A stretch of DNA of 64,000 bases from Candidatus Nanohaloarchaea archaeon (GCA_041640035.1 JBEQBC010000002.1:64001-128000), one strand, 5' to 3'. Positions 633 through 10,960 are shown, numbered from the stretch's first letter. Notes: generated from the letters alone by a model not told the origin. Made by a program: numbers and translations.

Positions 633-2345
633 ATGAAAGACTTAAGCAGAAAACTGGCTGAGTTATCGAAGAGAAGAGGTTTCTTCTTCCAATCAAGCGA
701 ATCTTACGGCGGCGCAGCAGGTTTCCAGACATTTGGTCCTGAAGGCGCAGAGATAAAGAGAAATATAGAGAACAGCTGGAGAGAAACATTCTCAGATAGC
801 CTAGGCCACAGAGAAATAGAAGCACCCACAATAATGCCAGAAGCAGTCTTCGAGGCATCAGGCCACCTGGACACATTCGACGACATGATAATCGAATGCC
901 CGGAATGCGGCACCAGCTCCAGAGCCGACCACATCGTGGAAGACAATACTGATATAGAAGAAGCGGAAAGCTTCTCCCACGAGAAAGTCGAAGAACTGAT
1001 CAAAGAACACAACCTGGAATGCCCAGAGTGCGGCGAGGATCTGTCAAATGTAGCCGTCGAGGACTTCAACCTGATGTTCAAGACCAGCATCGGCCCTGGC
1101 AGCGGACAGACAGGCTACCTCAGACCGGAGACAGCTCAGGGTATCTTCGTAGAGTTCCCAAGACTGAAAGACTACGCACGCAACCAGCTGCCTTTCGGCA
1201 TCACACAGATTGGCAAAGCATACAGAAACGAGATAAGCCCACGGAAAGGTCTTGTAAGAGTGCGTGAACTGACTCAGGCTGAGCTCGAGCACTTCATCGA
1301 TCCGGAGGAAGATGAGCCTCCGATCAAAGATGTTGAAGATGTAGAGCTGAAGCTGTATTCAAGAGAGCAGCAAAACGCTAAGGACGGTGAAGTCCAGAAG
1401 ATGACTGTGAAAGAGTCAGTTGAACAGGATGTAGTTGACTCCGAATGGATCGCTTACTATCTTGGTATCGCGAAGCAGTGGTATGAGTCTATCGGTGTTG
1501 ATATGGAGCGTTTCCGTTTCAGACAGCACCAGAACGATGAGCTCTCCCACTACGCAAGCGACTGCTGGGATGCAGAGAGCCAGGTCGACGGCGATTGGAT
1601 CGAGATCACAGGTTTCGCTTACAGAGGTTGCTACGACCTGAAGAAGCACGATCAGTACAGCCGAGACGACTATAAGGTCTTCAAGGAATACGACGAACCA
1701 CGGACTGTTGAGAAGAATACCGTTGATCCTGATATGGGTTTCCTGGGTCCTGAGTTCGGTGATAAAGCCGGTGAAATAGCTGACAGACTTGAGGAACTTG
1801 CTGAGGAAGAACCTGAGGCCTTCGAAGCCGACAAGGTATTCGTAGAGATCGACGGCGAAGAATACAGTATTCCTTCTGACAAGTGCAACTTCAGCGTTGA
1901 GGAAGTTACTGAGAACGGCGAGCACATTCTGCCTCATGTAGTTGAGCCGTCATTCGGTATCGACCGTATCGTATACACAGTACTCGCGCACAGCTACGAT
2001 GAGGACGAGGTTGACGATGAGGAAAGAACCGTTATGCGATTCAACGAGACAGTTGCTCCTACTGAAGTCGCTGTCTTTCCGTTGATGGATAAGGACGGTC
2101 TCAGCGAGAAGGCCAGTGAAGTTGCGGATATGCTGCGTGAAGAAGGCTTCTCGGTCAAGTACGACGATACCGGTAACATCGGTAAACGGTACAGAAGACA
2201 GGATGAAGTCGGTACACCGATCTGCGTGACCGTTGATTACGATACACTGGAAAAAGATCCAGAGACAGTAACGGTTAGAGACCGGGATTCGACTGAGCAA
2301 GAAAGGGTTGAGATAGATAAGTTATCCAGAGAGCTGAGAGAATAG
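633..2345 (+). CDS. glyS: Glycine--tRNA ligase (alpha2, archaeal/eukaryotic type)
   Basis: LRPETAQGIF, GKAYRNEISPR, VEPSFGIDR and the C-terminal anticodon domain IGKRYRRQDEVGTP. Confidence 0.97.
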   Translation: MKDLSRKLAELSKRRGFFFQSSESYGGAAGFQTFGPEGAEIKRNIENSWRETFSDSLGHREIEAPTIMPEAVFEASGHLDTFDDMIIECPECGTSSRADHIVEDNTDIEEAESFSHEKVEELIKEHNLECPECGEDLSNVAVEDFNLMFKTSIGPGSGQTGYLRPETAQGIFVEFPRLKDYARNQLPFGITQIGKAYRNEISPRKGLVRVRELTQAELEHFIDPEEDEPPIKDVEDVELKLYSREQQNAKDGEVQKMTVKESVEQDVVDSEWIAYYLGIAKQWYESIGVDMERFRFRQHQNDELSHYASDCWDAESQVDGDWIEITGFAYRGCYDLKKHDQYSRDDYKVFKEYDEPRTVEKNTVDPDMGFLGPEFGDKAGEIADRLEELAEEEPEAFEADKVFVEIDGEEYSIPSDKCNFSVEEVTENGEHILPHVVEPSFGIDRIVYTVLAHSYDEDEVDDEERTVMRFNETVAPTEVAVFPLMDKDGLSEKASEVADMLREEGFSVKYDDTGNIGKRYRRQDEVGTPICVTVDYDTLEKDPETVTVRDRDSTEQERVEIDKLSRELRE

Positions 2346-2362: not shown

Positions 2363-3622
2363 TTATTCTTCTTTTATCAGAAACCCTGAAACTGTGTTAT
2401 TATTCACTATACACATTTTGTCGCCGCCAATTTCGCCCATACCGTAGAAGCCTGCAATTTTTGCATTCATTCCTTCTCTCATTTTTTCTACTTCTTCTTC
2501 CAGCTCTTCGTCATTCATAACCAGGTTTCGACATGAACAATCAGTTACTATTCCAAATGCGGCATTGTGGACATCAAAAGCATTTTTTCCTGCCTCAATG
2601 ATATCTTTTTTATCTCCTTCAACTACTTTAACAGGTTGATTTTCATTTATATGAGTGGAAGCTAGTAATGCATGGTCTTCTGTCACATCATAGGATACTA
2701 TTGTTCTATATTTGTCGCCCCCTCTCTCTAGAGCAAGTGAGGACTCTAATGTGTACTCAAGGACTTTTTTAGGCAGTATCGTATCTTTTCCTCTCAATTT
2801 CATTCCTATAAAACGGGCTAGCCCTGCCATTTTTTCCTTTAAAGATGTGTCCATAGAGGCTTTTAACTCAGATACTTCTACTCCTATTGCTTCAGAATAC
2901 CATTCAGCTGCTGGTTTTCCACTTATTTTCTCTATCTTTTTACCTTCTGTATCAGTTATGACCCCAGTAGTGATTTCTTTGTTTAGACCGTGTTCCTGAC
3001 CGGTTATAACTTCATTATCAGAGTTCATTAACACCGTGACAAGTCCATCATCATAGGTTTCTCCGTTGTGGAACTGGTATGTCTTCCACAGGCGTATATC
3101 ATCACCTGTAGAACCTCCTACGAGAGGAACATCTGTTCCCAGCACATCAGTAATTCCTTCAAGGACTTCAAACTCTACGCCTTTCTTATCCATAGTTAGA
3201 CCTGAGATAAGAGTGAATATTGCGGTATTGTTATCCTCTTTCCTGTGTTCTTGAAGCTGTTCTGCAACATCACGGCCGGTTTCCTCCGGTGCATCGTGAA
3301 CATTTGCTTCAGAGATAGCATGGAAATCTATAGCGTCTGATTTAATGAGAATTAATACGGCGCCACCGGTTGTAGAACCTTCACTAGAGACTTCTCCAGC
3401 AGTGGTGCCTCCAACCCAGTCTGCCCCTATCTTATCCATTTCTTCATCTACTGAAGATGCAAGTTTGGAGACGCTGAACTCTACTGAGGCGAATAGAAAA
3501 CCGAAATCAGCCTCTTGCATTTCTCCGTCATCCAATGCTTCTTGAACAAGTTTCTTGCCTGCTTCTTTTGATGATGTATCAGCAGAGTTGACAAATGCTT
3601 CTCCGACAGAGACAGATTCCAT
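2363..3622 (-). CDS. Stand-alone FIST N/C domain protein
   Basis: WVGGTTAGE, LVGGSTGD, G+PA.EWY, DCSCR and GFYGMGEIG are typical FIST_N/FIST_C motifs; no output domain. Confidence 0.85.
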   Translation of the reverse strand: MESVSVGEAFVNSADTSSKEAGKKLVQEALDDGEMQEADFGFLFASVEFSVSKLASSVDEEMDKIGADWVGGTTAGEVSSEGSTTGGAVLILIKSDAIDFHAISEANVHDAPEETGRDVAEQLQEHRKEDNNTAIFTLISGLTMDKKGVEFEVLEGITDVLGTDVPLVGGSTGDDIRLWKTYQFHNGETYDDGLVTVLMNSDNEVITGQEHGLNKEITTGVITDTEGKKIEKISGKPAAEWYSEAIGVEVSELKASMDTSLKEKMAGLARFIGMKLRGKDTILPKKVLEYTLESSLALERGGDKYRTIVSYDVTEDHALLASTHINENQPVKVVEGDKKDIIEAGKNAFDVHNAAFGIVTDCSCRNLVMNDEELEEEVEKMREGMNAKIAGFYGMGEIGGDKMCIVNNNTVSGFLIKEE

Positions 3623-3693
3623 ACCTCTTTTATGTGGTTTCTTGCTAATAAGAGTGATGAAAAGTTAAATTCGGGAAAAGTTAATCGTAAGTT

Positions 3694-4749
3694 ATGAGCA
3701 CTGCTTCATCCCACCTACAGAAGATTATCAAACTTCATTTCGATGATGAAAACGGCGCACCCTACTGGATAGAGAAGAAAAAAGAGCTTTCCTTCAATCC
3801 TGAAGAAGATATCCAAACCCTTGAAGACCTACAATTATTTATAGAGGATGATAACTACGACGGATTCCCTTCTGAGAAGCTTAAAGAGAATCCTAAGGAC
3901 CTTATACCTCAGAAACTTGATAGCTCAGAATATGAGATTTATAGTTCCGGAGGCCGTACAGGCAAACCTAAATGGACTGCTTGGAAAACTGAAGGCGGAT
4001 GGAAACGGGTTATGGAAGTAGTAGAGAAACAGTTTGAAGACCATAACATCAGTTTAAACAGAGATATAGCTTACATCGGTCCTACAGGCCCTCACCCTTT
4101 CGGTTATGCACCAAAAAAACTTGCTAACAGGAACAATGTTGACTTCTTGACTATTGATCTAGATCCAAGATGGGTAAGAAAGACAAAGACAGATCCTGAA
4201 CTAAGAAAAAGAAACGCTGGCGACAAATACATAAGCCATCTGAAGGATCAAACACAGACTCTTCTACGGCAGTTTGGACCCGATATTGGAATTCTGATTT
4301 CAACCCCTACAATAATTCAAATGTTACACCAATCTGGAGCACTGGATAAAATGCGTCTTGACGGTATTGTATGGGCAGGTCAAGCCATGAAGCCGGAAAA
4401 CTTCCAGGCATTAAACGATGAACTCGACTGTCCTATAGTAGGATGGTATGGAAACACCCTGCTAGGAATATCACCTCATGTAGAGTTCGAAGAAGGAAAT
4501 ATAGTTTACCAGCCAAATCCAAGACTTGTCCAGTATCAGATTGTTGACGATGAGCTGAAACAGAAAGAATACAGCGAAAGGGGCAGAACCCTGACCCACA
4601 TCCTGAGAGAAGGATTGTTCGCACCGTACCATATGGAAGACGACGCCGGCACACGACTTCAGCCTAGAGAAGGTGAAGAGGTAGATGCAGTTGGAAATCC
4701 AGATGTACCTGAAGAAAGGCAGGAAGATATCGAGTCTGGAGTTTACTGA
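3694..4749 (+). CDS. EhpF/GriC-like short adenylate-forming (phenylacetate-CoA ligase-like) protein
   Basis: PYW, SSGGRTGKPK (AMP-binding loop), GPTGPH, IDLDPRWV, YGNTL and C-terminal ESGVY resemble the EhpF/GriC family. Confidence 0.75.
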   Translation: MSTASSHLQKIIKLHFDDENGAPYWIEKKKELSFNPEEDIQTLEDLQLFIEDDNYDGFPSEKLKENPKDLIPQKLDSSEYEIYSSGGRTGKPKWTAWKTEGGWKRVMEVVEKQFEDHNISLNRDIAYIGPTGPHPFGYAPKKLANRNNVDFLTIDLDPRWVRKTKTDPELRKRNAGDKYISHLKDQTQTLLRQFGPDIGILISTPTIIQMLHQSGALDKMRLDGIVWAGQAMKPENFQALNDELDCPIVGWYGNTLLGISPHVEFEEGNIVYQPNPRLVQYQIVDDELKQKEYSERGRTLTHILREGLFAPYHMEDDAGTRLQPREGEEVDAVGNPDVPEERQEDIESGVY

Positions 4750-6173
4750 TGGTCACGATTAAAGCCAATCTTGGCGGTGAGAAGAGCGAGCCCTATCGTA
4801 CAAAAAATATAGAAAGCTATAGGGGAGAAAAAATCGGGGAGATAGAGCGATTCCCAACTGTCAAGATTAATTCTGCTCTCAAAAAGAACAGAGAATCTAA
4901 GAAAAAACTTCAGGAGACCGACATAGATCAACTAATAGAGATAATGCAGGATGCGGGAGATATATTCAAATCTCGGTCTCTGGGGTCAGGAGAAACGAGT
5001 TTCGATCAGTACGCCGAACAAGTATCTGAATCAACGGGGCTTCCGATAAGAAATGTGTATCGATCTGCGGATATGATCCAAGATTCTTTCAAGCAGGTTA
5101 AATCCTCTCTGAGAGCTCAATCACCTATGGGAGATATCAGTTCACTTGATAAAGGATACTATGAAACATCGTCCGGACAGAAAGCTGGATATATAAGGAA
5201 AGGAGATAACCTCGGTATTTTAGCTCCTGGAAACCACCCTTCCGTTATTTCACTTGCCTTAATTTCCTATGCATCTAAGTATCCGATAGCTATATGTCCC
5301 TCAGATAAAGAACCTTTCACGCCTGCAAGAGTGGTTAATGCTCTTTACAAAGCCGATGCGCCAGAAGATACTCTTTACATGCTTCCAGGAGATCGTGAAG
5401 TAGGTTCAAAAATTGTAGAAGACTCAGACCGCTCTATAGGTTTCGGAGGAGACGCTTTGAAGAAGAAATATTCCGATAGGAACAATATCAAGATTCATGG
5501 CCCGGGCAATAGCAAGATATTTGTGGAGAAAGGTTTTGAAGAGGACGAAGCAGTTTACAGAATGATGGAAGAAGCTATGATGCGTGATGGAGGCAGAGGC
5601 TGTATAAACATGAGCCACATAATAACTAACGGAGACGCCGAGAAGATTGCGGAGAAAATGGCGTCAAGAGTAATCGGAAACGAGATAGTAAAGCCAACTT
5701 CCGAGGATGCTTTCATACCGGCTTCCCCAGACCCACAACGAGCAAAAAGCATCAACAGAATTATTCAGCAAGAAACTAACGGCAAAAATGCGGAAGACAT
5801 CACTCAGAAACTCCGAGACAATAAGAAGAGATTAGTAGAGAAGAAGGGAGCTACATTTTTGAGACCTACAGTTCTACTTTTGGAAGAAGATGTGGCTTCT
5901 AAGAACAGCAGACTTTTCAAGGAATATCCTTTCCAATACTGCACAGTGACAGAGATTTCTGAAGACAAAACTAAGGAGAAGTTATCCGACACCCTAACTC
6001 TTAGCATGTTTACAAACGATGAAGAAAAGATAAAATCTGCTCTCCGAGATCCTTCCATCGAAAAAGTATACGCCAGTCAAGACACTACCTGCGATATTGA
6101 TCTTAGAGAGCCTCACGAAGGCTATCTCCTAGACTTTCTGTTCAAAAAGAAGGCATTCCGACCGCCCAAGTAA
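4749..6173 (+). CDS. EhpG/GriD-like aldehyde dehydrogenase / acyl reductase
   Basis: PGNHP, PS.KEPFTP.R, FGG, HGPGNSKI, GGRGCIN (catalytic Cys) and KEYPF; translationally coupled (TGATG) to the upstream gene. Confidence 0.78.
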   Translation: MVTIKANLGGEKSEPYRTKNIESYRGEKIGEIERFPTVKINSALKKNRESKKKLQETDIDQLIEIMQDAGDIFKSRSLGSGETSFDQYAEQVSESTGLPIRNVYRSADMIQDSFKQVKSSLRAQSPMGDISSLDKGYYETSSGQKAGYIRKGDNLGILAPGNHPSVISLALISYASKYPIAICPSDKEPFTPARVVNALYKADAPEDTLYMLPGDREVGSKIVEDSDRSIGFGGDALKKKYSDRNNIKIHGPGNSKIFVEKGFEEDEAVYRMMEEAMMRDGGRGCINMSHIITNGDAEKIAEKMASRVIGNEIVKPTSEDAFIPASPDPQRAKSINRIIQQETNGKNAEDITQKLRDNKKRLVEKKGATFLRPTVLLLEEDVASKNSRLFKEYPFQYCTVTEISEDKTKEKLSDTLTLSMFTNDEEKIKSALRDPSIEKVYASQDTTCDIDLREPHEGYLLDFLFKKKAFRPPK

Positions 6174-6208: not shown

Positions 6209-7150
6209 ATGGCAGCTTGTTCTGAATGCGGAAAAGAGTCAATGAGTTTCACCTGCAGTTACTGCGGGAAGAGCTTCTGCTCGGATCACCGGCTGCCTGA
6301 GAACCATGACTGCGATAAGCTTGAGGAAGAGCTCGAGAAAAAGCAGGAAGAGGATGGCAAATGGTTCGAGAACAAGGACAAGAAGAGCGAGGAAAAGAGA
6401 CGAGGTAGAAGAGAACCTCCTAAGAAACCAAGTCTCGCGGAAGACATACTAAATGTTTTCAAGGATAATATAAGCTATAGTATAATCGCAGTAACCGTGT
6501 TTTTCTTCGTTCTCCAGCCTTTCCTTCCTGGTGTAAGCCCTCCTATATCACAGGAAGCATTCCAGATGGTTCAGAACAACCCGTTCGAACTAAGTCCTTT
6601 GATACTTTATCCGTCTCTTGAATACCTGATGGAGAGGCCATGGACCTTGTTCACAGTGATGCTGATGCACGGAGGACTACTTCATATATTCGCGAACATA
6701 GTGACCTTCTACTTCTTCGGAAAACCGATAGAGAACATAATCGGCGGAAGAGAAACACTGAAACTGTACCTTGGCGCAGGCCTGATTTCCAGCCTAGCAA
6801 TTGTCGGATTCCAGAACCTGCTCAACATGATTCATGGAGTAGGAATGTCACCGATCGTAGGAGCTTCGGGTGCAGTTGTAGCCTTTATTGGTGCAGTCGC
6901 GATACTTTACCCTGATGCAGAAGTACTGCTTTACTTCGTCGTTCCTATGAAGATCAAGACTGCGGTTTACGCCTTTGGAGCGATCGAAGCTGTGAATATC
7001 GTCCTGAAGCTTTTCAACATCTACCTGCCTTTGATCGGAGGTTTTGCCAGTTCAGCACATCTTGCTGGCCTCCTGATTGGTATCTGGTACGGTAGAAAGA
7101 TTAAGGATGAGGCAGGTCGGATGAGCGTGTTCGATCCTATGCAGTTCTAG
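6209..7150 (+). CDS. Rhomboid intramembrane protease with N-terminal AN1-like Zn finger
   Basis: CSYCGKSFCSDHRLPENHDC; HIFAN, GASG catalytic Ser and AHLAG catalytic His. Confidence 0.92.
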   Translation: MAACSECGKESMSFTCSYCGKSFCSDHRLPENHDCDKLEEELEKKQEEDGKWFENKDKKSEEKRRGRREPPKKPSLAEDILNVFKDNISYSIIAVTVFFFVLQPFLPGVSPPISQEAFQMVQNNPFELSPLILYPSLEYLMERPWTLFTVMLMHGGLLHIFANIVTFYFFGKPIENIIGGRETLKLYLGAGLISSLAIVGFQNLLNMIHGVGMSPIVGASGAVVAFIGAVAILYPDAEVLLYFVVPMKIKTAVYAFGAIEAVNIVLKLFNIYLPLIGGFASSAHLAGLLIGIWYGRKIKDEAGRMSVFDPMQF

Positions 7151-9176: not shown

Positions 9177-9509
9177 TTATTGACAGTACTGCCAGAAATC
9201 TGTGCATTTTCCGTTCTCGTTCAGCTTGATCAGATAGATTCCTTTCAGATGGTTTTTCTCTCCGTTTGATCTGTAGGATAGTTCCCACTGTACGGTGTGT
9301 TTGTTTTCACTGCTGGAGAATAGTTCGAGTTCGAGCTGGATATCTTCCTGTTCCTTGACTCCCTCCCATTCTTTTTCTAACTCCTCTGGCGCGAGTTTCT
9401 GATCAGGTGTTTCGTAGTAGGTTACATCGTCGGTGAAGAGGTCGAGTACTTTTTCTACATCCTTTTCTTTCCAGTTCTCCCTGAATTCTTGAAGCCATTC
9501 TTCGATCAT
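9177..9509 (-). CDS. SnoaL/NTF2-like protein
   Basis: W..KD.E.VLDLFTDDVTYYETP...G.C..F.QY pattern; SD-like GGAGG upstream. Confidence 0.8.
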   Translation of the reverse strand: MIEEWLQEFRENWKEKDVEKVLDLFTDDVTYYETPDQKLAPEELEKEWEGVKEQEDIQLELELFSSSENKHTVQWELSYRSNGEKNHLKGIYLIKLNENGKCTDFWQYCQ

Positions 9510-9679
9510 CGTGTTACCCTCCTCTTTTTCTGGATCAACTATAGAGTTCGGTTACCGTCCATTAACTTAAATAAGAATATCTATATACTTTGACTATTGT
9601 GTAAGAGTGCATAATACACTCTGACACATAGGGGATTTTGGGGGAGTGATAAACGAAAAATGAGAGTGATTAATAGAAA

Positions 9680-10033
9680 ATGGATAAAGTCGGTAATGCA
9701 CTGATTAGTTTGATACAGGATCTCTCCAGTATTTCTACAAACGGTTACGCGAAGGTCGAGATAAACGAGAATCTCTGTGACCCGAGGCAGTTTGAACAGT
9801 TATTCGATTACTTCACCCAGGGAACTATCCTGGAAAGAATTGATCTAGATGTTGAATCAGCTCAAACCCAAGTGGACTGCGGATGCGGTTACAAGGAACC
9901 TGTAAACGGAGATCACTCCGGATACATGAGATGCCCGGACTGTGGAAAGTTCGCGGAAGTACAGGACCACGCATACAGCATCAAGAAGCCTGATCCTTCC
10001 AAGGTTGGGAAACGGCAGAGCATCAGGTTCTAG
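9680..10033 (+). CDS. HypA-like Zn-binding protein (degenerate N-terminus)
   Basis: F..GTILE, then CGCG...CPDCG in HypA-like spacing. Confidence 0.6.
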   Translation: MDKVGNALISLIQDLSSISTNGYAKVEINENLCDPRQFEQLFDYFTQGTILERIDLDVESAQTQVDCGCGYKEPVNGDHSGYMRCPDCGKFAEVQDHAYSIKKPDPSKVGKRQSIRF

Positions 10034-10083
10034 AGTATAACTACTAAAGATTCCGTTCTACGAATAACAATTATAGAGGTACT

Positions 10084-10166
10084 GCCGGGGTAGCCAAGTG
10101 GCCAAAGGCGACGGACTCAAGATCCGTTCCCGCAGGGGTTCCCGGGTTCAAATCCTGGCCCCGGCA
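10084..10166 (+). tRNA. tRNA-Leu(CAA)
   Basis: GCCGGGG/CCCCGGC acceptor, ACGGA-CTCAAGA-TCCGT anticodon arm and a long variable arm. Confidence 0.95.
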
Positions 10167-10189
10167 TCTAAGCCCATACTGAACAAGCT

Positions 10190-10960
10190 ATGAGAACGAA
10201 CAAACCTTCAGAAGCCGACCTGATAATCCAGAAACTTCCAAGCGACATGGGAATCCACCGCAACCCGCGAAAAGGCACCCTGAACGCACCAGGAAAAATC
10301 CTGGAAGAATACATTTCCGAAAACAATGTTCTGATAGACGAAGTTTTCCCCAACGAGTTCTCACTTCAGGAAACACATCATAAAATAGAAGAGAACACCG
10401 ATGAAGTCACTGAATACGGTAAACCTGTTCTTTCGCTGGGAGGCGATCACTCAGTAAGTTTCCCAGTCATCAAAGCCCTGAAGGAAGACAATCCAAGTAT
10501 GAAGCTGGTCTGGCTAGACGCACACCTTGACTTGAAGGAAAAAGTCGGCGATAACATATCACACGATGTAGTTGTACGGGAACTACTCGAAAACGGTTTT
10601 TCAGAGAGCGAAATCTACTTCGTAGGGATCACCGAAATTGATCACGATGAAGAAGAGTTTATACAGGGTAGAGACCTGAATATTTTCCGGTACGATGAAT
10701 TGGAAGAATTCAAAAGAGAGTTCCAAAACGATGAACAACCTGTGTATTTGAGCACAGACATCGATGTCTTGAAAGAAGAACTTGCTCCCGGAACAGGTTA
10801 CCCTGACGGAGAGTTAGAGCTGGAAGAAGTTCAGTCAGTGATTGAAAAGGTTGAGCCTGATCACGCAGATCTAGTTGAGGTCGCACCCCCATTGGACGAT
10901 GGAACAACTCTAGAAAACAGCAGGAAAGTTCTGAAATTTATAGAGAAAGAACTCACATAA
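10190..10960 (+). CDS. Arginase/agmatinase (ureohydrolase) family
   Basis: GGDHS, DAHLD, DIDVL, APGTG and DLVEV motifs. Confidence 0.9.
   Translation: MRTNKPSEADLIIQKLPSDMGIHRNPRKGTLNAPGKILEEYISENNVLIDEVFPNEFSLQETHHKIEENTDEVTEYGKPVLSLGGDHSVSFPVIKALKEDNPSMKLVWLDAHLDLKEKVGDNISHDVVVRELLENGFSESEIYFVGITEIDHDEEEFIQGRDLNIFRYDELEEFKREFQNDEQPVYLSTDIDVLKEELAPGTGYPDGELELEEVQSVIEKVEPDHADLVEVAPPLDDGTTLENSRKVLKFIEKELT

Follow-up and report, generated by a model that had tools for sequence, protein, structure and literature searches.

A candidate exchangeable cassette in nanohaloarchaea pairs a predicted two-part carboxylate reductase with a stand-alone FIST protein

The window analysed here is a 64,000-nucleotide stretch of the genome of a Candidatus Nanohaloarchaea archaeon (GCA_041640035.1, JBEQBC010000002.1:64001-128000). 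At positions 2363 to 6173 it contains three genes that associate a predicted two-protein carboxylate reductase with a stand-alone FIST protein. The FIST gene (2363..3622, minus strand) encodes 419 amino acids. Divergently from it runs a gene (3694..4749, plus strand) for a stand-alone adenylase of the EhpF/GriC type, 351 amino acids long and ending in GVY, followed by a gene (4749..6173, plus strand) for a 474-amino-acid reductase of the EhpG/GriD type with an aldehyde dehydrogenase (ALDH) fold. The original prediction, made from the sequence alone, described two translationally coupled genes lying head-to-head with FIST across 71 bp in a reduced archaeon, and these points hold. The open reading frames (ORFs) and the gap at 3623..3693 are as described, and the TGA stop codon of the adenylase gene (4747-4749) shares one base with the ATG of the reductase gene (4749-4751) in the string TGATG. 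The motifs that it quoted are found in the translations (SSGGRTGKPK, GPTGPH, IDLDPRWV and GVY in the adenylase; GNHP, EPFTPAR, GPGNSK and GCIN in the reductase), and the genome, that of a nanohaloarchaeon, amounts to 978,572 bases. The divergent intergenic region carries the tandem 10-mer GAAAAGTTAA at 3658-3667 and 3675-3684. Between the window and genome G002, 65 of its 71 positions are identical, against 79.9% DNA identity for each of the flanking FIST and EhpF-like genes. From these two sequences, the region is a probable shared promoter/operator or control region.

Although the adenylase matched no Pfam family, its residues 5-331 match the EhpF structures PDB 3l2k and 3hgu (E 1.4e-32), and its alignment with the plasmid-encoded EhpF of Pantoea agglomerans runs end to end (residues 8-351, 30% identity, E 7e-38). 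The 351 residues of the window protein compare with 366-369 in the EhpF chains, and GVY ends both. EhpF, as Bera et al. reportedly described in 2010, lacks the C-terminal domain of ANL enzymes, and the window adenylase is likewise predicted to consist of the ANL N-terminal domain only. In its phosphate-loop motif SSGGRTGKPK, residues G86, G87, T89, G90 and P92 are invariant among 13 sequences. The family has few members: a word-indexed search through 5.8 billion proteins returned 13 matches.

The reductase matches the Pfam family Aldedh (E 1.2e-14) and aligns with Pantoea EhpG at 25% identity (E 9e-39), the cysteine of its GCIN motif falling on the EhpG cysteine. Across 26 relatives of the window reductase, Asn162, Cys285 and Glu392 do not vary, and neither does a G-P-G-x-S motif that aligns with GPGNS of the coenzyme A (CoA)-acylating succinate-semialdehyde dehydrogenase 8cei. 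We take this GPGNS position to be the site of the general base of hydrolytic ALDHs; on that assumed correspondence, we read the protein as a putative thioester-reducing ALDH devoid of the hydrolytic general base.

Together, these matches bear out the predicted kinship with EhpF/EhpG and GriC/GriD, and the pair appears to be an archaeal member of this kind of two-part carboxylate reductase, which probably converts an acid into an aldehyde. Our comparison system for EhpF/EhpG was the D-alanylgriseoluteic acid (phenazine) cluster of Pantoea agglomerans, in which EhpF-O turn phenazine-1,6-dicarboxylate into the final product, which carries a hydroxymethyl group at its 6-position (PMC3175449). The Pantoea ehpF and ehpG genes show the same 1-base overlap as the window pair, and in both systems an adenylase of about 350 amino acids with a GVY end and without the C-terminal ANL domain is followed by an ALDH-fold protein with the same cysteine. 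They differ in that identity is only 25-30%, the window pair belongs to a separate archaeal clade, the window has no phz or ehp scaffold genes, and the ehp cluster has no FIST partner. The absence of scaffold-biosynthesis genes had been anticipated: Pfam annotation of the window neighbourhood revealed none, and phenazine or grixazone scaffold genes (phzA-G; griH/griI) looked for there were not found.

In the grixazone pathway of Streptomyces griseus, as related in a source citing Suzuki et al. 2007 (PMC10179220), GriC adenylates 3-amino-4-hydroxybenzoate to the acyl-AMP, which GriD then reduces to the aldehyde, and the window pair shares this logic of an AMP-binding protein with an ALDH-like reductase. 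This likeness is drawn from the literature and from Streptomyces homologues of the window pair, not from the GriC and GriD sequences themselves; the homologues are about 26% identical to the window pair and are named 'arylcarboxylate reductase' by the Prokaryotic Genome Annotation Pipeline (PGAP). The one such Streptomyces locus inspected (L111) differs from the window: its neighbours are menaquinone and futalosine genes, and no adjoining gene is annotated as ALDH-like. LuxE/LuxC, in the account given with PDB 7XC6 (PMC9157457), likewise combine ATP-dependent activation of an acid with a cysteine-dependent ALDH-fold reductase to give an aldehyde, and in other nanohaloarchaea the place beside FIST in the cassette is taken by a true LuxE/LuxC-type pair. 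The window module nevertheless has neither luciferase nor LuxD. Pfam LuxE (PF04443) and LuxC (PF05893) do not match the window proteins at E 0.1 or better, and no LuxE or LuxC match occurs genome-wide in G000. The homologues in L079 and L080 give weak LuxC matches (2.9e-5 and 9.7e-6), and BLASTP finds no similarity between the window pair and the nanohaloarchaeal LuxE/LuxC-type proteins at E 1e-3.

A pattern scan for the adenylase across one genome per prokaryotic species detected 69 loci, one in a nanohaloarchaeon of the same genus and 68 in bacteria, mainly Acidobacteriota and Actinomycetota. Since 53 of the 68 bacterial loci also carry an ALDH-like homologue, mostly directly downstream, the adenylase and ALDH-like pair is a conserved unit. 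In Paenibacillus and Amycolatopsis it is flanked by chorismate-binding enzymes and short-chain dehydrogenases; in Planctomycetota and Acidobacteriota, by an iron alcohol dehydrogenase, a radical-SAM enzyme, glycosyltransferases and pyrroloquinoline quinone (PQQ)-type propellers. The EhpF-type adenylase of the metagenome contig L079 contains no cysteine at all; consequently, in this type of pair the adenylase cannot carry the acyl group in the way that LuxE does.

EhpF-like sequences also occur in other settings. On a GC-rich metagenome contig (L078:7977-13108), an archaeal-clade EhpF-like adenylase stands without an ALDH-like partner and adjoins pentapeptide-repeat, YcaO and nitroreductase genes, a different use of the adenylase, perhaps in peptide modification. 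In the nanohaloarchaeal genome G008 (L138:2229-7220), a 416-amino-acid protein without a Pfam family matches the N-terminal 95 residues of the EhpF-like protein at 41% identity; its gene follows one for an Arf-like GTPase and a Roadblock/LC7 gene, and precedes that of a full-length AMP-binding enzyme.

Pfam recognizes in the FIST protein FIST_N (PF08495, 4.9e-31, 108.5 bits against a gathering score of 23.2) and FIST_C (PF10442, 3.7e-16, 59.9 bits against 28.5) and no further domain, so that its description as output-less is confirmed. The same FIST_N and FIST_C architecture without output domain is found in NosP, a haem- and nitric oxide-sensing bacterial protein that the original prediction had named as an example of FIST ligand sensing. 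The window protein scores 102.3 bits against the NCBIfam equivalog cut-off of 450, and identification as NosP was rejected; no kinase or cyclase partner lies near the FIST gene in the window neighbourhood.

In an alignment of 33 FISTs, Cys362, Arg365 and Gly396 never vary, and Glu397 is kept in 31. While the single window sequence found nothing in the PDB with phmmer, a profile built from 27 FIST sequences retrieves only human FBXO22 (E 0.0044 over 67 columns) and aligns Cys362 and Glu397 with FBXO22 Cys326 and Glu362, the residue numbers having been counted by hand along the printed alignment. FBXO22 likewise heads the fold matches (E 3e-9) of the AlphaFold model of the window FIST (predicted local distance difference test, pLDDT, 90.1). 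The motif Cys362..Arg365 and the G-E-I-G motif with Gly396-Glu397 thus fall on the Cys326 and Glu362 stretches of the FBXO22 FIST domain (PDB 8ua6, 8s7d), although the two proteins are only 12% identical and the window FIST has no F-box. According to the preprint account of FBXO22 (bioRxiv 10.1101/2025.08.29.673087), alkyl and aryl aldehydes react with Cys326 to give a hemithioacetal, a reactivity that Glu362 supports, the native ligand of the site not being established in that account. That the cysteine of the nanohaloarchaeal FIST captures aldehydes in the same manner is a tentative proposal, to which we give somewhat less than an even chance. The fold matches of the model that come after FBXO22 are Toblerone-fold cyclic amide hydrolases and chorismatases, with template-modelling (TM) scores of 0.33-0.38. 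These hint that FIST may be built from RidA/YjgF-like repeats that bind small acids.

The original prediction called for a survey of FIST and pair co-occurrence in archaea, and in 70 nanohaloarchaeal genomes the two do co-occur. We found 2 EhpF/EhpG-type pairs, 5 strong LuxC loci (E 1e-33 or better) and 6 LuxE loci, amounting to 8 pair loci, and in all 8 of these adenylase and reductase pairs, drawn from related genomes, a FIST gene is directly adjacent. L079 provides a ninth case. At every LuxE/LuxC locus, the gene immediately upstream of LuxE is FIST, in the same orientation. The count of 8 omits six weak matches to the LuxC model (E 1e-6 to 9e-5), which are not FIST-linked and which we treated as ordinary ALDHs; four lie in genomes without a FIST match and two on contigs other than that of FIST, and none of these genomes has a LuxE match. 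The pair loci span at least 4 genomic contexts in three families, including one beside argS (G028) and one beside V4R and CYTH genes (G033). Several metagenome matches to FIST and to the ALDH-like protein lie on contigs of equal size (4601, 17376 and 7767 bases), which suggests that they share these contigs. Because the two types of pair show no mutual BLASTP similarity, FIST seems tied to a function rather than to one gene family, and a functional coupling between FIST and the pair is, in our view, probable. In G033 (L131:399-1352), the LuxE/LuxC-type triad is followed by a 152-amino-acid orphan ORF and a V4R-domain protein.

The module lies between glyS (glycyl-tRNA synthetase, 633..2345, plus strand; Pfam tRNA-synt_2b and HGTP_anticodon) and the gene of a rhomboid protease with an N-terminal AN1 zinc finger (Pfam; 6209..7150, plus strand), the conserved left and right borders of a variable site. 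Occupancy of this site was assessed in five nanohaloarchaeal genomes searched with the rhomboid protein and in the further genomes or loci G008, G015, G053 and L079. In G001, G006, G017 and G029, glyS is directly followed by the AN1-rhomboid gene, then by endA and RNase HII; consequently, the 3.8-kb block of the window is an insertion or deletion of all three genes. One of these genomes, G001, belongs to the genus of the window and is 96% complete, and its empty site substantiates the claim that the three genes behave as one module. The contig of the fifth genome, G022, ends at the rhomboid gene. Synteny of the rhomboid gene with endA and RNase HII is found in G001, G006, G017, G008, G053, G015 and L079. 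In the complete genome G008 the site reads glyS, FIST, rhomboid, and the enzyme pair is missing; in G015 the FIST is truncated; G053 reads glyS, LuxC-like, LuxE-like, FIST, rhomboid; and L079 reads FIST, EhpF-like, ALDH-like, rhomboid. A single genus (g7) thus presents, at one site, FIST alone (G008), FIST with LuxE and LuxC (G053) or FIST with the EhpF-like and ALDH-like genes (L079). Genes flanking the site in L079 and G008 are 81-88% identical, whereas the FISTs are only 36% identical, from which we conclude that FIST and pair were replaced together within one genus. The L079 cassette, at the same site as that of the window, is only 37-40% identical to it and therefore indicates an old cassette; between the window and G002, the module DNA differs by 20-28%. 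Insertion borders read by eye showed no repeats or target duplications, no dedicated repeat search having been made. Taken together, the gene orders and identities indicate that the three genes are an old, exchangeable cassette at a hot spot, swapped between close relatives.

FIST matches were found in 20 of the 70 nanohaloarchaeal genomes, with up to 7 per genome. The nearest relatives of the window FIST outside its genus are 41-43% identical, and the single named match among them is a metagenome-assembled genome (MAG) of Nanohaloarchaea. In the FIST tree, all FISTs linked to the site fall into one 15-row clade (support 95/94) with three unresolved subclades: the window genus and the L079 type, both EhpF/EhpG-linked, and a LuxE/LuxC-linked group that includes the lone FIST of G008. 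FIST subclades thus track pair type. Elsewhere in the phylum, FIST genes of two different clades lie beside ATP-citrate-lyase-like or citryl-CoA-synthetase-like genes in G005 (L124:3491-8262) and on contig C5 of G002 (L135:3483-7709). Their neighbours encode ATP-grasp_2 and Citrate_bind domains, CoA_binding and Ligase_CoA domains, a HAD hydrolase and a citrate-synthase C-part. These loci are a second link of FIST to carboxylate-activating enzymes.

In trees of the two enzymes, the adenylase of the window genus falls within an archaeal clade of 14 rows (SH-like approximate likelihood ratio test, SH-aLRT, 99), itself within a clade of 16 rows (98), and the reductase within an archaeal clade of 20 rows (support 100). 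Both archaeal clades contain Halobellus sp. EA9, Haloarcula salinisoli and many metagenome proteins, and proteins of Aenigmatarchaeota MAGs neighbour them. Halobellus and Haloarcula are the nearest named relatives, at 54 and 50% identity for the adenylase and 46 and 41% for the reductase. Pantoea EhpF and EhpG lie in the actinobacterial part of the trees, and the Streptomyces 'arylcarboxylate reductase' and the plasmid pairs of Halalkalicoccus and Halomarina are distant. A true orthologue is confined to 2 of the 70 nanohaloarchaeal species genomes, G000 and G002, both from the window genus; a third match, in G029, is a 434-amino-acid protein with 27% identity. The pair is thus common to nanohaloarchaea and haloarchaea, and we assign no direction of transfer. 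An approximately unbiased (AU) test of a single clade for the ALDH-like rows of the window genus and of the L079 type gave p 0.049. Because this value is borderline and the group was named after the tree had been seen, we do not claim two separate acquisitions.

We propose that the EhpF-like protein would adenylate a carboxylic acid with ATP, after which Cys285 of the ALDH-like protein would accept the acyl group as a thioester, to be reduced with NAD(P)H and released as the aldehyde. The pair would thereby follow the logic of GriC/GriD and EhpF/EhpG and be a two-protein analogue of LuxE/LuxC. The divergent FIST would be its dedicated partner, most likely binding the aldehyde reversibly via Cys362 with the help of Glu397, as FBXO22 does. 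Aldehyde-bound FIST could then feed back on the module or pass a signal on, acting as sensor, feedback element or carrier. What the analysis establishes is the homology, the conservation of catalytic residues, the strict linkage of FIST to the pair and the exchange of cassettes at one locus, whereas reaction direction, transfer of the acyl group, binding of aldehyde by FIST and any output are inferred. Overall, we judge it somewhat better than an even bet that an aldehyde-making pair is coupled to an aldehyde-binding FIST partner in one exchangeable cassette.

Several observations weigh against this proposal. The archaeal clade of the pair is known from sequence alone, and no neighbouring gene gives a clue to the substrate. 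FIST has no output domain and no known partner here, and its sequence match to FBXO22 is weak, with few aligned columns and hand-counted residue numbers. Moreover, since the Cys/Glu pair is also kept in FISTs away from enzyme pairs, it is a general FIST feature and not specific to the cassette. The linkage is one-way, about 40 of the 49 FIST matches in the phylum having no pair, and the lone FIST at this site in the complete genome G008 implies that FIST can operate where the enzymes are missing. No FIST accompanies the distant-clade pair on two haloarchaeal plasmids, tblastn found none in the 68 bacterial adenylase loci, and Pfam found no FIST domain among 35 bacterial neighbours. Finally, the eight linked nanohaloarchaeal pairs are not independent samples.

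FIST could be coupled to the pair and sense something other than the aldehyde, for example the acid substrate or an amino acid, or the linkage could be mainly positional, a product of the recombination hot spot; we hold this to be unlikely, though it is the alternative that we take most seriously. The lone FIST of G008 and the broken one of G015 fit it, as do the FIST paralogues of G005 and G002, whose citrate-lyase-like or CoA-ligase-like neighbours suggest a link of FIST to carboxylate metabolism in general. The invariant Arg365 close to Cys362 could also bind a carboxylate. Against this reading stand the adjacency of FIST to every pair, including those of G028 and G033 away from the hot spot, and the tracking of pair type by FIST type. 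FIST could also be a pathway enzyme that makes or processes the substrate, in keeping with its secondary fold matches to cyclic amide hydrolases and chorismatases (E 2e-5 to 8e-4) and with invariant residues that include Cys, Arg, His211, Asp174 and Glu77. These matches are poor, however, given their low TM scores and a root-mean-square deviation above 10 Å, and we know of no catalytic FIST; this is the least probable of the readings considered. Scarcely more probable is that the pair releases no aldehyde, either because the acid is activated for another acceptor or because the ALDH-like protein oxidises an aldehyde. ALDH-fold enzymes usually oxidise, and the evidence on the archaeal clade is confined to sequence, but the motif GPGNS stands at what we presume to be the general-base position, as in thioester-handling ALDHs, the tight coupling to the adenylase matches GriC/GriD, and the cassette contains no acceptor gene.

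The original prediction had gone further on origin and substrate, proposing a recent import of all three genes for converting an aromatic acid from the host or environment into an aldehyde toxin or signal sensed by FIST. Part of this was upheld. The block is, as claimed, richer in A and T at third codon positions than glyS and forms a low-GC3 island: third-position GC content (GC3) is 0.312 for FIST, 0.378 for the adenylase and 0.402 for the reductase, while the flanking glyS and rhomboid genes have values of 0.550 and 0.525. Ranked among 738 ORFs of at least 150 amino acids from the whole 0.98-Mb genome, these values correspond to percentiles 1.2, 6.1 and 11.1, against 93 and 84. The absence of the block from G001 of the same genus, the restriction of true orthologues to two genomes of the phylum and the haloarchaeal affinity of the pair also favour import, and the characterised relatives act on aryl acids. 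The horizontal origin of the whole module did not stand, as FIST is native to the lineage, its relatives being nanohaloarchaeal with a same-clade FIST at the same site in other genera, and the cassette is old, judging by its divergence in L079 and G002. The occurrence of such a FIST without the pair in G008 and with a LuxE/LuxC-type pair in G053 argues against a one-off acquisition, and nothing points to a substrate class or to toxicity. We therefore regard a recent import serving an aromatic toxin or signal as rather improbable.

What is unusual here is thus the coupling to FIST and the allele-like exchange of the cassette. The cassette offers a clear example, in the reduced genome of a symbiont, of a complete functional unit being replaced like an allele at a single conserved locus. 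Nanohaloarchaea have haloarchaea as hosts, and enzyme genes common to both are of interest for the question of how accessory functions come and go in DPANN archaea. To our knowledge, the ligand of FIST domains has been an open question since the domain was defined. The locking of FIST to an aldehyde-forming pair, together with its FBXO22-like Cys/Glu site, offers a concrete and testable class of ligand. On a more speculative note, and with a low probability, FIST domains might at root be aldehyde receptors and the cassette a self-contained unit that makes and receives an aldehyde signal. The alleles of the hot spot (EhpF/EhpG-type, LuxE/LuxC-type, FIST only and empty) would then be chemical 'dialects' of strains, perhaps based on acids of the haloarchaeal host, and the Cys326 site of FBXO22 a relic of the receptor function. 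Our literature search, with subscription journals and bioRxiv supplements outside it, found no description of a FIST-reductase coupling or of such a cassette exchange.

Pfam annotation of the window neighbourhood gives glyS, rhomboid, endA, RNase HII, SnoaL_2, HypA-like and arginase-family genes. The SnoaL_2 protein, the HypA-like zinc-ribbon protein and the arginase-family protein are encoded near the rhomboid gene, at 9177-10960 of the window. The N-terminal AN1 zinc finger of the rhomboid protease is kept across its family. On plasmid 2 of Halalkalicoccus jeotgali (L110:5514-10338), the distant-clade pair comes right after a sodium:solute symporter gene, with a short-chain dehydrogenase/reductase (SDR) gene and an IclR regulator nearby, a context that looks like uptake and catabolism rather than biosynthesis.

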